Positions 51,228-59,505 of a stretch of 64,000 nucleotides of DNA are shown here, in pieces. This DNA comes from Moniliella sp. 'wahieum' (Eukaryota). Each line of letters opens with the position of its first letter. Position 1 is the first letter of the stretch. The position numbers were made by a program, and so were the translations under genes. The stretch is taken from contig RSEE01000115.1 of the NCBI GenBank assembly GCA_003971905.1, positions 124,001-188,000 of the forward strand, read 5' to 3'. The notes under the pieces are model-generated. The model made no database searches. It saw nothing but the letters and a program-made list of their open reading frames with translations, and was not told where the DNA came from.

Positions 51228-53184
51228 ATGGACATGGCCTACGCCCCGCCCATCTCCGTCCGTCCGCCTCTCTGTACCCAGGCGGCTCTACCGCGGTCGG
51301 ACCGCAGTGTTGCCAGTACCGCCAGCACCGGCACCCGGGCCTCCCGCAGCTCCACTGTCGAATCCACCGCAACCTGGATGAGAGGAGTGCCCCCTCTCTC
51401 CCCCGCCCTGCTTTAGCCCAACCTCGGCAGTTGACTCCTACTCCTCCACCCCCAAGGCAGCCGCGACCTTGACCCCGGTCCCAGCCCCTCCCCCGGCCCT
51501 GATCCCGACCCGACCACGACCTTCTCCAACCGCAAGAAAACGTGCCACCCTTTTTGATGCGTAGTGCCCGCACTACGTCTCTCGATCCTCACAGTCTCAC
51601 TATCTTCCCCATTCCCGAGGCGGATCGGAGTGAACCACTAGGCGTGCCCAACCGGGCAACCATCCTGCGGTCAAGCCAATCGGTTTCTTCCCTGGGTCTC
51701 GCATCGCGTCGTCGAAGGCCTGCTCCGATGCTAAAAGTTCCCACTGAGGGACCGCATGCAGTGGGTCGACCAGTGTGCTGAACCACACGTTCCACCTCCG
51801 TATCCAAGGAGCTGTCCGCCAAGAAGTGCTGGACACATTGACTGGCTTCGAGGTGAAGTGCATATCCTCGGGACCGAGTCGGACCTACCGGACGAAGACC
51901 TGGGCGTCTCTTGGATCGGCTGGAAGAGGGAATGCGTGCCCAGTACCGTGGTCGTTCTTCCGCTGGGCCTGGGTTGCGCTCGAGTCTGAGCCAAGGCAGT
52001 CTCCGTCTTCGCGCAAGGATGAACCGCTTCCCTTTGCGTCCGTGGTCGCGGCCGCGTGACTGATTCTTCTCGCATCGGGGCAAGGCAGCAAAAGACTTGC
52101 TGCACTCGGACCTGCTGGCACATGGCTCGAAGCCTCGGCAGATGGTGGTTGCCCGCCCCCTTCCCAGGGACTGAGGACCACGCCCACCGCCGATTCTGGC
52201 AACTTGTCTCCTTCCCATCCCGACTCCCTACCGTGCCCGACAACATCCCCCTCGCCTCCCTCATCCTGGCCGCAACACGAATCTCTGCCTCTGTCTCCGC
52301 CTCCCCCAGCGTGCTGGAACCTTCGCAACCGACTCGGTCCTCGACTCTGAGAGGACGTCGAACGTGATGTCAAGAACGGTGCGGAAAATGCTACTGCATC
52401 GGAAAGAGAGTGTGCCTCCTGGTTCGGCACCAAGCGTCTGTGCAGGCCCCCGTTCTGCCGGGCCCCACATACGACCAACCCCCCCAACGCCCAGTCGCAA
52501 GCTACGTCACCGAGCCAGCGAATCGATCCTTCGTCGCAGCAAGGAGGCCACTTCGTTGCGCCAAATGTCCCCCGGCAACTTTTCTACCTGGCAAGGGCAG
52601 GGGCCCGGGCCAACCGCATCCCCCGACGTGCCTACCATATGGGCGGTTCGGGGCCTGCCCCCGCCTCGTCACGCTTTCCTCCTCCTCTTCGCACCGTGTT
52701 TCGCCGTTGCCGTTATCTCATGCCATTCTTCGCCTTTCCCTTCTGTATCCCTGTCCCTTTTCCCACCCCTACACTGCCCTGGTTCTTTTTTGCGCTGCTA
52801 CTATCATCATACCATTTCCCATTTCCCATCCCAGAGGCTCGGCCATCAGAGACATAAGAGAGGGTAGGTGACAGAGCCGAGTCTGGTTCTGGTTTTCTTA
52901 GCAATGGGTATGGCCAAGACATGAGAGCGGTCAAGCGGTCACCTCTACAAGCTCGTGTTGGTCTGTCTCTCCGCTTGCTCCGTCGTTCGCAAAGTGGGGA
53001 TGCGATTTCGTTCCTATCGACTGTTGTGCACATCCCCGTTCGGCTGAATGGTGGCGTTTGGGGCCCTGTTCCTCGCGACGTGCATGGCCCCCATCAAGCT
53101 GGCCCTGTCCGCTTTAGCCCAGCTGTGATGACGCTACTTTCTCTCATCTTGGCTTCATCAGACAACGTTGATCTCTTAGCATGA
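51228..53184 (+). CDS. Hypothetical Ser/Pro/Arg-rich protein (heavily frameshifted)
   Basis: ATG after a pyrimidine-rich leader, GC-rich coding-like composition, fragmented ORFs; no domain recognised; end uncertain. Confidence 0.35.
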
Positions 53185-53393: not shown

Positions 53394-53783
53394 TTAGTAG
53401 AAGTAACCGAGGATCTTGCCCTGCATGCTTGCGACGCGCCTCCTCGTGGTCATAATGCCGCCGAGGGTGGTGAGAACAATAAAGCCGAAACGACCGTGCC
53501 GGGAGCAAGTTCTCAACCCAGTTCTCCACCTGGCCCAGTTGGACGTTGAAGCGGGGCGAGATGACACCGCACTTGTTGACGCGGCCGTTGAGCTGAATCA
53601 CGATCTTGCCGCTCCGGTGGTCATCCACTTCCTCAAATTCGCCAATTTACCCGTGCTTCTGCATGACTGCAAGAACTTGATGATGACCTTGGACGAGGGG
53701 CGGATCAGCACCTGGCGCTTCCCGCGGCGCTCGGCATTGACGATGGCATTGAGGCAGCGTTCAGACAGAACGGAGACACGCAT
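53394..53783 (-). CDS. RPS22: 40S ribosomal protein uS8 (S22/S15a)
   Basis: [67 protein letters not shown]; frameshifts; intron 53864-53784 directly upstream. Confidence 0.95.
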
Positions 53784-54148: not shown

Positions 54149-54639
54149 ATGGGTCGTGTTCGCACCAAGACGACGAAGCGCGCAGCACGGGTGCTCATTG
54201 AGAAGTACTACCCCAAGCTCAATGCGAACGACTTCCACACCAACAAGCGTGTGTTGGACGAGGTGGCGATTGTGCCCTCGAAGCGTCTGCGCAACAAGAT
54301 TGCCGGTTTCACCACCCACCTGATGAAGCGCATTGCCAAGGGCCCCGTCCGTGGCATCTCGTTCAAGCTTCAGGAGGAGGAGCGTGAGCGCAAGGTATGT
54401 ATTTGCTCGTCCTCGTTGTGGATGTGGATTGGTACTAACGCTTGGCACAGGACCAATACGTCCCTGAGGTCTCGGCTCTCGACACGGAGGCCAACGGTGG
54501 TCTCGAGGTCGACCCGGACACCAAGGCCATGCTCGGCGAGATTGGCTTTGCCTCGCTCCCGGTTACTGTTGGTGCGCCCATCACCTCGGCTCAGCCCGAG
54601 CGCCGTGGTCGCAACGTTCCTGGTGCTGGCCGTCGCTAA
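54149..54639 (+). CDS. RPS17: 40S ribosomal protein eS17
   Basis: [21 protein letters not shown]...[35 protein letters not shown] | intron 54395-54450 | [11 protein letters not shown]. Confidence 0.98.
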
Positions 54640-54837: not shown

Positions 54838-55977
54838 TTAGCGTTGAAGAGTTGGATATTGGAAGCTTCCTCAGCAATGGTCAGGTCGATTGAATCGCCA
54901 AAGTAAGAAGGATCAGCTTCGCTGAGAGCCTGGATGCCTGCATTTGCCCATCCCGGTCGCCCAGGACATGGCACAAATACGCAGCAGGTGCAATAAAAGC
55001 CCGGTCGCTGTAATCTTCCAAGGCTTGGCGTCCCTCGCCCGCAGACCGGCCGGCACATCGGGCCACTGACGTAGGCCACGATAGGCACGGTGCATGGTTT
55101 GCAAGAGAGGGAGGATACGCTGGTCACCACTTACGGTGTAATAGCTCGAGAGACGCCAGGCAGTGCGGCATGCGTTCCACCCACAATCACCGTCTCGGTC
55201 AGACTCGAGCAGCTTTCCCCGTGGCGCAGACCAGCGGCCATTGTAGTTGGTGAGAAAGTCAGGCAACAGGACGTAGCCTTCGGGCAAAAGACTGAGTGCC
55301 GCCTGGAGCGTTGACTCGAGCACCCACTGCCACCGCGCCCGCTCGTTAGGGTCCTGTACCACCCGGTGAAACAGGAGGAAAGCAGAGAGAATAAAGTCGC
55401 TGCTCCGAGTAGAGTTGTAAAGCTTGACGTTATCACTGTCGTCTTGGTTGGCCCAGTCGCCCAGCAAAGGGGTGCCGAGGGACGGATGGATGTTGTACCG
55501 GAGAATAGCACTGGCAAGCAAGTTGCCCTCAGTCCAGTAGGCCTGATTCGGGAACATGGGCGAGTCGAGAAACGCTTGCCGGCAAGGAAGAGAGCGGTTG
55601 CGATATCATATCTGGAAGCAGGTTAGTGGACAACTGGGTTGGCAACTGCGGCTGAAACCGAAACGTCCGAGGGAATGGGCTCACCTCCATCGGTCGCATT
55701 GTCCGTCGCATCCTCTCGACGTAGATCTCACCCGAGCCGCGCTGGCGCACCTGCCACTTCATAAGCCCATGCTCGTTCTTGAATTGGAGAAAGAAGCGCA
55801 AGAGCTGGTCAAAATCTTGCTGGTTGTTGTGGTACACGCTGATCAGCATCGCGTAGCCGTGCGCTTCCGAGCAAGTAATGCATCGCCATTTTCGCCGCTG
55901 CCATTGTAAAAGCAGTAGTTGCCGAACGGCGAGGCACGCAGGTAGCGCTGACGCCAGTCTACATAGCGTGCTTCCAT
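54838..55977 (-). CDS. Glycoside hydrolase family 8 (GH8b-type, chitosanase/lichenase/endoglucanase-like)
   Basis: ITCSEAHGYAMLI (catalytic Glu), GLMKWQ, NATDG|D.DIATALFLA, LLGDW, TRSSDF, LLPDF, LESDRDGDCGWNACRTAWR, SYFGDSI; intron about 55684-55613; frameshifts; 3' end approximate. Confidence 0.88.
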
Positions 55978-56343
55978 GGTGCGAAGGGTGGTGGGCCTGA
56001 GGATGGCCACCGCAAGCGGATCGGCGGGGATGTGGGTGGCCCGCCCGCCGTTGCTCAGCTGCGCGCGCTCAGCTGAGCGCGCACTGCCAGCCGTCACCAC
56101 CCACCGGTGCCTGCCACGTGGCGCCAACCACCGTGCACGGCCTCATAGCCGGCGTCACATCGGCGTTTCCACATCCATTTTGCTTTGCATTTCTTTTTCG
56201 GTCGCTTATTTTTTTTGGTGTTCGAGTCAGCTGCATCGCTTCGCCGCCGCCACCGCCCGTCTGCTGCCGCTTGCCAGCCAGCTTCGCCTGTCCTCTTGTC
56301 GGCCCTGTGTCCGTCTTGCCCCGCCTCGACGCTGCTAGCCCAC

Positions 56344-59300
56344 ATGGCCGACGACTCGGTTCCCCATCTCCTGGCCTCACTCACCGGTTTTCGAATGAGC
56401 CAAGCCCATCGTGCGTGCCTCAACGTATGCCGCCTACCCTGATGGCACCGGGGCCGCGCCGACGTGGACCCCGCCGGTCTGAAGCTGCCAGACGAGCTTC
56501 GTGCTGCTGCCCTCGTTGACGTTGCGCGAAAAGGGGGGCATGTCCTTGAAATCGTGGAAGGTGTTAGAGCACGCGTACCGCTCACATGCCGACTCGGTAT
56601 ACAAGGCTGTCGGCCCTCGTGCCGACATCCCCACCCTGGCTCGGGGCTTTTTACCGAGGAAGGTCCGCAGGGGCACGGATTGTGGCGAGGGGCTACGACA
56701 AGTTCTTCAACGTCAACGAAATGCCGTGGACGCGGGTACGATTTTTTCCTTCGCTCTTCCCCAAGTGGCATTGACTGACATGCAACCACCACAGACTGAG
56801 AGCCTGCAGCGCTATACCGCCCCCCCTTATTACCTCACCTTCAAGGAGAATGGCTGCATCATCTTTGTTGCAGCTCTCACCCCCACCGAACTGGTCGTCA
56901 CGTCTAAGCACGGGCTTGGGCAGCTCAACTCCAGTCTCGCCTCTGCCTCAGCCCCCGACCCAACGGATGAAGAGGAAGCCTCACCCGACTTTTCTCAAGG
57001 CGGACTTGCGGTGTCCCATGCCCAGAAGGGTTCCGAGTGGCTTGACCGCCACCTCGCGCTGGCTAAGCGGACACGCGCCGAGCTCGCACAAGAGTTGTGG
57101 GCAAGGAAGGAGACGGCCATCTTCGAGTTGTGTGATGATGCGTTTGAGGAACACGTGCTTGCCTACGACCGGGAACATGCTGGCCTCTACCTCCACGGCC
57201 TCAATACCAATACTGTCCAATTCGCTACGTGTCCGCCAGCAGAAGTGGATGCGTTTGCACGCCAGTGGGGGTTTCACCCCACGCGCTTCCTCACCCTCCC
57301 TTCGTTCCCTGCAATGCAGGAAGTTGTCGCCCGTGTAGCCAAAGATGGTATGTGGGAGGGTCAACCGATTGAAGGGTTTGTGGTTCGGACAACCATCCCC
57401 TTACGGCCCCTAGCATTGAAGAAGCTCTTGCCGCCGCCCCCGAAGCGGTGGTACGCCCGCCTATGAGCGGGGCCAAACATGGTTCTACAAGGTTAAGTTT
57501 GATGAGCCGTACCTCATGTACCGTGACTGGCGCGAACTGGCCCGTCGGATGCTTGCGGACCAACAGTCCTGGGCTCAAGAATACGGCGATGATGCTCTCC
57601 GTCTGTCCAAACAGGAGGGAGGCACGCGCTACGATCCCATCCTGTCACTGCCCAGGACCTCGAGCATGCTCATGTCGAGTTGAGCCCCCCAACCCCCTTC
57701 GGCGGGAGTAGCTGGGGAAACTGGAGGTCTGTCTCGGAAGGCCGCTAAGCGACAGGCTCGTGCTCGATGGAACGCGCGGCACAGCGTCTGCATCAGCACA
57801 CTGAGACCGGTGGACGACCTCTCCCAACAAAGCCAAGCCTAAAACACAGGCCGGAAACACTCCTCTTCCTGGATTGGTGCTTTGACCAGCTCTGGGGTTC
57901 TGCGGATGGCCGCCTTCCCCACCCGAATTGTTCACCCAGTTCAACCAGGGAAAGGGCATCATTCATCTCCGTGACGAATTCTTGGCTTATTGCGAGTCCC
58001 CCGAAGGCAAAAGCCGCTTGCAGCCCCTCCTACCTGTACCCGAATTGGCAGCAAGGGTCTTATTCCAAGGTAGCCGCCCAGGCTGTAGCCCGCCGGACCT
58101 TTTACGCATACACTTATTGTCCCCATCTCTGTCCCGGGATCGGGAAAGACGACGCTGGCACGTGCATTGGGTGAGCTGTACCCTTTGGGCCATCCCCAGT
58201 CGGACTTGCTTCGGGGAAGAAGTCCAAGGCGGCCCAGTTCTTAGCCTTGGTCCTGGAAGAACTTAAAACGCATAAAATTGTCTTTGCTGATCGCAACAAC
58301 CACCTTTTCAAGCACCGCTCTGAGCTTATCGATCTGGTCCACCAATTCGAACAGCATGGTTGGGCTTTGGACTTCGCCTCAACCCAGCCACAGAAGAAAG
58401 GTAAAAAAGTGCAACCCGCACCTACTCCAGCGGTGGAGGGACCTAAGCCGCGTGTCCGCCTTGTTGCCCTTCATTGGACTTTGGCACCTGCGCCACTGGG
58501 AGATCAAGCAGTTGATTTTCTCACGTATTTTGGCTCGGGGACAGAACCACCGACGCTCAAAGCCGACGTGACCTCTCCCAAAGCCAAGTGGAGCACGAGA
58601 GACCATTTCCTGAAAATCAAGTGGGAATAAATCAAGCCCCGAGGTTCAGCCACTCGACCTGCTTGGGTGGTGGGAGAGACCGACCCCTCGGTTCAACGAG
58701 ACCCGATTGGGCTGATGCCATTTTCCACGATGTGATCCCCCTGAACATCAATTCGCCGCTGGAAGAGAATTTGGACACGCTTCTTCAATTGCTGCATTCG
58801 ATTGATCCTTCCTTCTCTCCCCTCTGAAGGAGAACGGATCGCGGCGCTGCTCCATGCTCATCAAGCTGCTTTGGGAGATAAGGATGCGCTGGCCTCCGAA
58901 GCTACACCCGCCCCCGCCCAAAAGAAGAAGAGCATGCGCCCCCGGTACTTCGGGATCAACTTCCGTGACATGGACTTGCCAACCTTTGTTCCTCCCCTGC
59001 TCCCTGCCGATGGCAAGGAGTTCTTCGCCGACATCCAATCGCAAGGTAAGATGGTGAGTGAACCCATGTGACTCTGGTGCACCGCATTCATGTGCAGAAG
59101 GACGAGGAAGCGATACGGTACGCTGAGAAGAAAGGACTTCCCCCCCCCGACGCGAAGGGAGCAAAGCGTGGGCTCAGTTCCTTCTACACTCGAGTCTTCG
59201 CTACCCCGGAGAACCAGTTTCCCGCGCTAGAAGGATTTGAGGTGGACGTCACAGGGATTTTGTGGTCGGAGCGTGTGATGACTTTCATCGTAGGGGACAT

Positions 59301-59505
59301 CCGTCACGCCACCTACCCTTGGCGCGCCAACCTTCCCTCGGACTGGGTGCCACGTCACCATTGGCACGGCGAACGAGAAGATTGCTCCGGTCGAGGCGCG
59401 CGCTTTGGCGGCTGCTTACCCTGACCACTTGCCCGCTGGCACGAAGATGCCAAGTTCGCACATCCTATTACGCTACAGGGTCAATTGGAGGGCATGATTG
59501 CGTAG
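56344..59505 (+). CDS. TRL1: Fungal trifunctional tRNA ligase (ligase, kinase, cyclic phosphodiesterase)
   Basis: PTLARG, IVARGYDKFFNVNE, motif I KENGCIIF, VTSKH, FELCDDAFEEHVL, EGFVVR, FYKVKFDEPYLMYRDWRE, P-loop PGIGKTT, VFADRNNH, HVTL-like CPD motif; intron about 56736-56792; many frameshifts. Confidence 0.95.

Follow-up and report, generated by a model that had tools for sequence, protein, structure and literature searches.

The locus analyzed here raises the question of how a GH8 enzyme of bacterial type came to be encoded, without a signal peptide, in a fungal genome, and whether its gene is still intact. The gene lies on the minus strand at positions 54838..55977 of a 64,000-nucleotide stretch of Moniliella DNA, to which we refer here as the window. 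An initial annotation had interpreted it as an old horizontal acquisition of a bacterial-type enzyme.

Gene structure and catalytic motifs

We placed the start of the gene at an ATG at 55977, opening with MEARYVDWRQRY, and its probable stop at a TAA at 54840-54838, resulting in a product of ∼357 amino acids (with X placed at the frame breaks described below). Coding exon 1 (55685..55977, minus strand) extends from Met1 through ATDG to the initial base of the following Asp codon, and it is separated from coding exon 2 (54838..55611, minus strand) by a phase 1 spliceosomal intron of 73 nt (55612..55684, minus strand). As initially proposed, this intron splits the ATDG/D motif; its GTGAG...CTAAC...CAG sequence provides the GT, branch and AG signals between 55684 and 55612, and the intron is skipped in a contig of a public sequencing run (X1; see below). 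The coding GC content of 0.57 is the same as that of the window. The gene is convergent with RPS17 (eS17; 54149..54639, plus strand; Pfam PF00833), which has a 56-nt intron at 54395-54450, and divergent from the tRNA ligase gene TRL1 (approximately 56345..59500, plus strand), whose PF09511 and PF08303 matches fall in separate open reading frames (ORFs). The placement between RPS17 and TRL1 is thus corroborated by Pfam. Beyond RPS17, the cluster includes a ribosomal protein gene (53394..53783, minus strand) that is frameshifted in the assembly and whose sequence resembles RPS22/RPS15A. Further away, at 51748-52056 on the plus strand, a weak Pfam SUI1 (eIF1) match below the cut-off (E = 0.029) probably marks one exon of an eIF1-family gene.

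The assignment to GH8 was upheld by several lines of evidence. The Pfam GH8 profile (PF01270) matched the N-terminal piece carrying SEAHGY with 34.2 bits (cut-off, 24; E = 1.8e-8) and is present in near-complete orthologs; the 230-amino-acid ORF alone gave no Pfam match. The SEAHGY motif (55853..55870, minus strand), holding the predicted general acid Glu38, aligned to SEAHGY of PDB entry 5XD0 and SEGQGY of 1V5C, and ATDGD, corresponding to the ATDxD motif, is likewise present and aligned to both. The GH8b-type E-x9-N spacing noted initially was recovered in LESDRDGDCGWNACR (55165..55209, minus strand), which contains the predicted general base Glu235 together with Asn245, and the same spacing occurs in 5XD0 and 1V5C as well as in 29 of 31 smut, 76 of 80 early-diverging fungal, and both algal sequences. 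The role of the GH8b Glu as general base comes from work on the Bacillus chitosanase. The Asn serves as the GH8b criterion in PMC11126685.

The predicted structure of the Violaceomyces ortholog (P0026; 59% identical to the window protein; pLDDT 93.5) is an (α/α)6 barrel, and its best matches are GH8 structures. In a Foldseek comparison, the best PDB match was the β-1,3-1,4-glucanase 5XD0 of Paenibacillus sp. X4 (TM 0.83), followed by chitosanase and then CelA, and the sequence profile ranked them in the same order (E = 3e-50, 1e-26, and 3e-20, respectively). The barrel, the acid Glu, ATDGD, and E-x9-N of both 5XD0 and the Bacillus sp. K17 chitosanase 1V5C (TM 0.79 against the ortholog model) align with the window GH8, although the two enzymes are only 25 to 30% identical to it. 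We envisage the protein as a bare (α/α)6 barrel beginning at the first helix and acting as an inverting endo-glycosidase in which, judged by alignment, Glu38 would protonate a β-1,4 bond and water would be activated by Glu235, located 10 positions ahead of Asn245.

Frame breaks and integrity of the gene

The GH8 motifs sit in different reading frames, a point absent from the initial annotation. A frame-aware alignment required five single-base deletions and one more at the intron 3' junction, with the same result for all three orthologs used. The six break sites lie near 55880 and 55714 in exon 1 and near 55608, 55567, 55022, and 54937 in exon 2; a seventh, near 54841, is probable from ortholog length and puts the TAA in frame. 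Every break corresponds to the loss of one base, and the pieces contain no in-frame stops.

No RNA run among the public runs listed contained the stretch, and run X1, of unrecorded library type, was the only public run containing any of it (8% of words). One of the 14 X1 records aligned was at least 99% alike to the stretch. The X1 contig, a single low-depth contig (253 nt; depth, 2.1) free of substitutions, lacks the intron, and at all three break sites that it crosses (55714, 55608, and 55567) it contains one base more than the assembly, the other four sites being outside the contig. These features fit an intact gene whose transcript has been spliced. In the neighboring RPS22-like gene, we observed four frame changes over 113 aligned codons, compared to none over 140 codons of RPS17, and the Pfam domains of TRL1 are spread over separate ORFs. 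Since the X1 contig restores all three covered sites and the nearby RPS22 is frameshifted too, the GH8 frame breaks look like assembly errors.

Among 82 columns that are invariant in 29 orthologs, the GH8 protein keeps 79, the orthologs themselves breaking 0 to 4. It differs from the Ustilaginomycotina orthologs in three otherwise invariant residues just past the catalytic Asn (P250A, H255S, and A258T), all of which are kept by its closest relative. Residues 250 to 258 correspond to window positions ∼55135-55161, outside the X1 contig, and the changes could be either genuine or local sequence errors. These substitutions so close to the catalytic Asn, together with the density of six to seven breaks within ∼1070 coding bases when adjoining RPS17 has none, are what a decaying pseudogene with genuine frameshifts has in its favor. 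Nevertheless, we consider a pseudogene highly improbable: the three breaks covered by the spliced X1 contig are missing from it, with no substitutions, all breaks are single-base losses without in-frame stops, and similar breaks affect RPS22 and TRL1. The GH8 gene is real and probably intact and transcribed. More generally, small indels are frequent in conserved genes of this assembly between window positions 53394 and 59500 (the RPS22-like gene, TRL1, and GH8), so that ORF-based readings anywhere in the window are unreliable.

Orthologs and gene order in Ustilaginomycotina

A search with the 230-amino-acid ORF yielded 45 protein homologs among 661 candidates. All 18 homologs that are named belong to Ustilaginomycotina (Tilletiaria, Malassezia, Tilletia, Kalmanozyma, Ustilago, Sporisorium, Pseudozyma, Violaceomyces, and Thecaphora) and are 44 to 61% identical; the P0013 cluster contains UMAG_00866 of Ustilago maydis (54% over 190 amino acids). 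Most full-length orthologs have 357 to 364 residues, and UMAG_00866 and the orthologs from Tilletiaria anomala, Malassezia, Tilletia, and Sporisorium (∼357 to 364 amino acids) have the same length as the window protein. The Ustilaginomycotina orthologs share with the window GH8 the start MEA[KR]Y..WR and the motifs, with 57 to 67% identity over the whole protein.

We built two trees, a FastTree tree of 266 rows, obtained by de-duplicating 347 domains at 80%, and a quick IQ-TREE tree of 70 hand-chosen rows, with support given as SH-aLRT only. In the latter, all 13 smut rows, including the window row, fell on one side of a branch with an SH-aLRT of 100, and in the former, from which the window row was left out, all 34 smut rows grouped together, likewise with a support of 100. 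The window row is nearest to a 79% identical protein and then to Tilletiaria.

A scan of metagenomes returned 35 loci, five of them fungal. Four of these are genomic (L082, L083, L085, and L086) and 73 to 75% identical to P0006, a protein that groups with named Malassezia proteins. The neighborhood that the initial annotation had singled out for comparison, RPS17-GH8-TRL1, was retained only in part: all four loci keep the order RPS22-RPS17-GH8, as in the window, but TRL1 adjoins GH8 in none of them. In addition, GH8, which directly follows RPS17 of the conserved head-to-head RPS22/RPS17 pair, is in tandem with RPS17 in these Malassezia-like loci and convergent with it in the window; one lineage has undergone an inversion of GH8. 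Consistent with this adjacency, a Malassezia vespertilionis gene model joins RPS17 and GH8 in one. The ATDG/D intron is present with the same position and phase in L085 and L086 and absent in L082 and L083. The conserved order and the common intron thus make GH8 an old resident of the locus. As a side observation, L085 and L086 each have six very short GH8 introns (∼30 to 35 nt, from a rough alignment), L082 and L083 have two, and the window gene has one; these counts show extensive intron turnover.

We thus regard the gene as an ordinary member of an already noted, uncharacterized family that is spread over smut fungi and Malassezia. PMC9172201, citing Kijpornyongpan 2018, relates that the presence of GH8 has been suggested for all Ustilaginomycotina, and smut sequences were already included in a published GH8 tree. 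In the literature searched, we found no biochemical study of any Ustilaginomycotina GH8 ortholog; a full-text search for UMAG_00866 gave no relevant match, and a term search of the small supplementary files of the U. maydis secretion papers PMC12167484 and PMC6881057 did not find it. Very probably, the gene is an intact and expressed ortholog of UMAG_00866 that descends from an old group of eukaryotic GH8s and has been passed on vertically within Ustilaginomycotina.

Origin of the smut GH8 genes

A profile search gave 2,057 matches among 8,000 sequences scored. The names among the best 120 of these matches were those of smuts, Mortierellomycotina, Mucoromycotina, Zoopagomycota, chytrids, and one green alga only; Ascomycota, Agaricomycotina, and Pucciniomycotina did not appear among them. 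In the trees, all fungal rows lie on one side of a branch with a support of 90, with algae just outside. Within the fungi, chytrids branch first and then Zoopagales, followed by Basidiobolus, Mortierellales, other Mucoromycota, and smuts without a resolved order. The nearest relatives of the smut sequences outside the smuts are thus the GH8s of Mucoromycota, Zoopagomycota, chytrids, and green algae and not those of bacteria.

To these results we added AU tests, the groups for which were named after the tree had been seen. Forcing the smuts together with named bacteria, outside the group of fungal, algal, and unnamed sequences, was rejected (p-AU = 0.0017). Forcing the early-diverging fungi together without the smuts was not rejected (AU p = 0.31). 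The tree grouping and the rejection of the bacterial placement indicate that smut GH8 has a common origin with the other eukaryotic GH8s and that any bacterial transfer must be very old.

The reading as an unusual, lineage-specific acquisition from bacteria is thus not supported. Orthologs with common synteny and a common intron occur across Ustilaginomycotina, their closest relatives elsewhere come from fungi and algae, the sequences do not nest among bacterial homologs (AU p = 0.0017 against named bacteria), and a broad, vertically inherited fungal clade, specified beforehand as the finding that would speak against such an acquisition, was found. A direct bacterium-to-smut transfer, separate from the other fungal GH8s, could draw on the missing names of Ascomycota, Agaricomycotina, and Pucciniomycotina among the best 120 matches listed, since vertical descent then requires several losses, and on the tolerated placement of smuts outside the early-diverging fungal group (p = 0.31). 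We nevertheless regard it as extremely improbable, given the rejected placement with named bacteria (AU p = 0.0017) and given that smut GH8s are 33 to 43% identical to Basidiobolus GH8, with which they have a signal-less start in common, whereas bacterial loci (the best 80 of 584) are 30 to 37% identical to the Basidiobolus query. The smuts may have obtained GH8 either by ancient vertical descent with losses or by an old fungus-to-fungus transfer. For the eukaryotic GH8 group as a whole, a bacterial origin is plausible and has already been published (PMC11126685).

One further protein, P0250 (Logan), is a signal-less GH8 that is sister to all smut sequences (support of 97), yet it is 56% identical to Jimgerdemannia; knowing which lineage it comes from could settle the route by which smuts acquired GH8. 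We also observed metagenomic GH8s without a signal-like N terminus (P0056, P0059, P0077, P0057, P0058, P0060, and P0069) whose branches lie between those of bacteria and those of the eukaryotic group; some sequences of this type bear an extra C-terminal domain. A giant virus as vector, an idea prompted by such signal-less sequences (P0056, P0058, and others), was unsupported by viral searches: two scans of IMG/VR gave no relative and a third gave one bacterial-looking locus (L001), BFVD gave no match at E ≤ 0.001, and Atlas showed GH8 clusters only, with no viral link.

Absence of a signal peptide

The reported absence of a hydrophobic N-terminal signal proved correct, with the most hydrophobic 9-residue stretch among the first 32 amino acids reaching a hydropathy of only 0.26 and the domain beginning at Met1. 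We applied the same crude measure (a 9-residue hydropathy maximum with a threshold of 1.6, not SignalP) to models complete at the N terminus. The maximum was below 1.6 in 30 of 32 smut models, in all 73 early-diverging fungal models (which include near-duplicate Mortierella sequences), and in both complete algal models, amounting to 105 of 107; the two smut exceptions are upstream extensions preceding the conserved MEAKY start. The GH8 domain begins at Met1 in 29 of the 32 complete smut models. In contrast, bacterial relatives mostly have a hydrophobic N terminus, with 63 of 72 bacterial ORFs above 1.6 and 9 of 72 not (8 of 80 without a Met before the domain being left out), and they have ∼30 to 60 extra N-terminal residues and no introns.

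An in-frame stop lies ∼57 codons upstream of the GH8 ATG, with no in-frame Met between, and one CAG at 55999 could act as an acceptor. A missed upstream exon encoding a signal was nevertheless rejected as an explanation: the orthologs begin at the same Met, and such an exon is therefore not needed. Although the measure is crude, the fungal and algal models differ strongly from the bacterial ones, and judged from the sequences compared, the missing signal is a group-wide trait and not a quirk of the window gene or the result of a missed exon.

In the literature searched, which mostly excluded subscription papers, we found no statement that the fungal and algal GH8 group lacks signal peptides. 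It is possible, though we propose it tentatively, that the GH8s of fungi and green algae constitute a single ancient group whose signal was lost at the root and which has since kept a conserved nonclassical role, either in cytosolic glycan processing or through unconventional export. If so, the smut copy would be a Dikarya survivor of a pathway otherwise retained by early-diverging fungi, UMAG_00866 would make this reading testable in a genetic model, and lichen algae, which have been proposed to thin the fungal wall with GH8 (PMC11126685), would need an unexplained export route for the enzyme. The alga in question, the trebouxiophycean Asterochloris glomerata, has a GH8 lichenase with the same GH8b-type Asn as the window GH8 (PMC11126685); algal GH8s belong to the same eukaryotic group in our trees, where they are represented by rows from Myrmecia and Coccomyxa rather than from Asterochloris. 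The Asterochloris enzyme differs in being algal and in its proposed action on the wall of the lichen partner (PMC11126685).

While the single gene matters little, GH8 in Ustilaginomycotina having already been noted, the useful point is that fungal and algal GH8s as a group lack a signal peptide. This suggests an uncharacterized wall-polymer hydrolase, either cytosolic or unconventionally exported, bears on the lichen GH8 hypothesis, and is directly testable in U. maydis. In a separate inspection of fungal GH8 C termini, many were found to end in aromatic or hydrophobic residues (HEWF, PTGF, and NVPY), with no peroxisomal SKL-type signal among those inspected.

Substrate and place of action

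The literature searched, including passages of PMC3032700, PMC4469406, PMC12712428, and PMC6690862, contained neither activity or localization data for fungal GH8s belonging to this group nor a functional study of one. As listed in PMC9705894, the Paenibacillus X4 enzyme has activities of 2.22, 1.80, 0.71, and 0.32 U/mg on barley glucan, chitosan, CMC, and lichenin, respectively, so that barley glucan and chitosan are cut to a similar extent. The algal GH8, the sole assayed eukaryotic member, cut lichenan and not chitosan or cellulose (PMC11126685), which counts against chitosan as the substrate. The wall of the skin-dwelling Malassezia, in contrast, is inferred to hold chitosan (PMC3560662), and the retention of GH8 in Malassezia suggests a fungal rather than a plant substrate.

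Without a signal peptide, GH8 would be made in the cytosol. A precedent for a wall hydrolase that leaves the cell in such a situation exists in the same subphylum: according to PMC7358432, U. maydis exports the chitinase Cts1 to the division site by an unconventional, signal-less route. The likeness is a functional analogy only, Cts1 being a chitinase of an unrelated family, and the Cts1 route is applied to GH8 by analogy. The family of Cts1 is GH18. On our preferred reading, GH8 would cut a polymer of the fungus's own wall, with chitosan and a 1,4-containing β-glucan about equally probable, and it would reach the wall without the endoplasmic reticulum (ER), either by unconventional export as for Cts1 or upon autolysis. 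We give an endo-β-1,4-glucanase or chitosanase acting on the own wall via a non-ER route close to an even chance. The full proposal, an UMAG_00866 ortholog that would act as an inverting endo-enzyme on an own-wall polymer, seems to us evenly balanced between right and wrong.

The same intact ortholog might instead be truly cytosolic and remain inside the cell, where it would trim an intracellular glucan or oligosaccharides that are imported or recycled, a possibility that we take seriously although we doubt it. It would agree with the lack of a hydrophobic N terminus in complete smut (30 of 32), early-diverging fungal (73 of 73), and algal (2 of 2) models and with a table of the classical secretome of Mucor circinelloides from which GH8 is missing (PMC13301921). 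It would also do without an unconventional export that has persisted all the way from chytrids to algae, which is much to assume. However, the GH8b relatives are endo-enzymes acting on polymers, and we know of no cytosolic β-1,4 polymer in these fungi. In addition, the algal enzyme freed mixed-linkage oligomers from polymeric lichenan (PMC11126685).

Action on the fungus's own wall must also be weighed against a nutritional or host-directed role, with plant mixed-linkage glucan or the walls of other fungi as the target. Many smuts infect grasses, the closest solved structure is a β-1,3-1,4-glucanase, and the algal member is a lichenase, all of which would suit such an enzyme. We nevertheless consider this role improbable, as the protein has no signal peptide, the gene persists in Malassezia, a genus without a plant host, and the smut proteins carry no binding module. 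Longer or modular GH8 forms amounted to nine matches among 2,257 candidates, and modular fungal GH8s were dismissed, the longer fungal forms looking like fused gene models.
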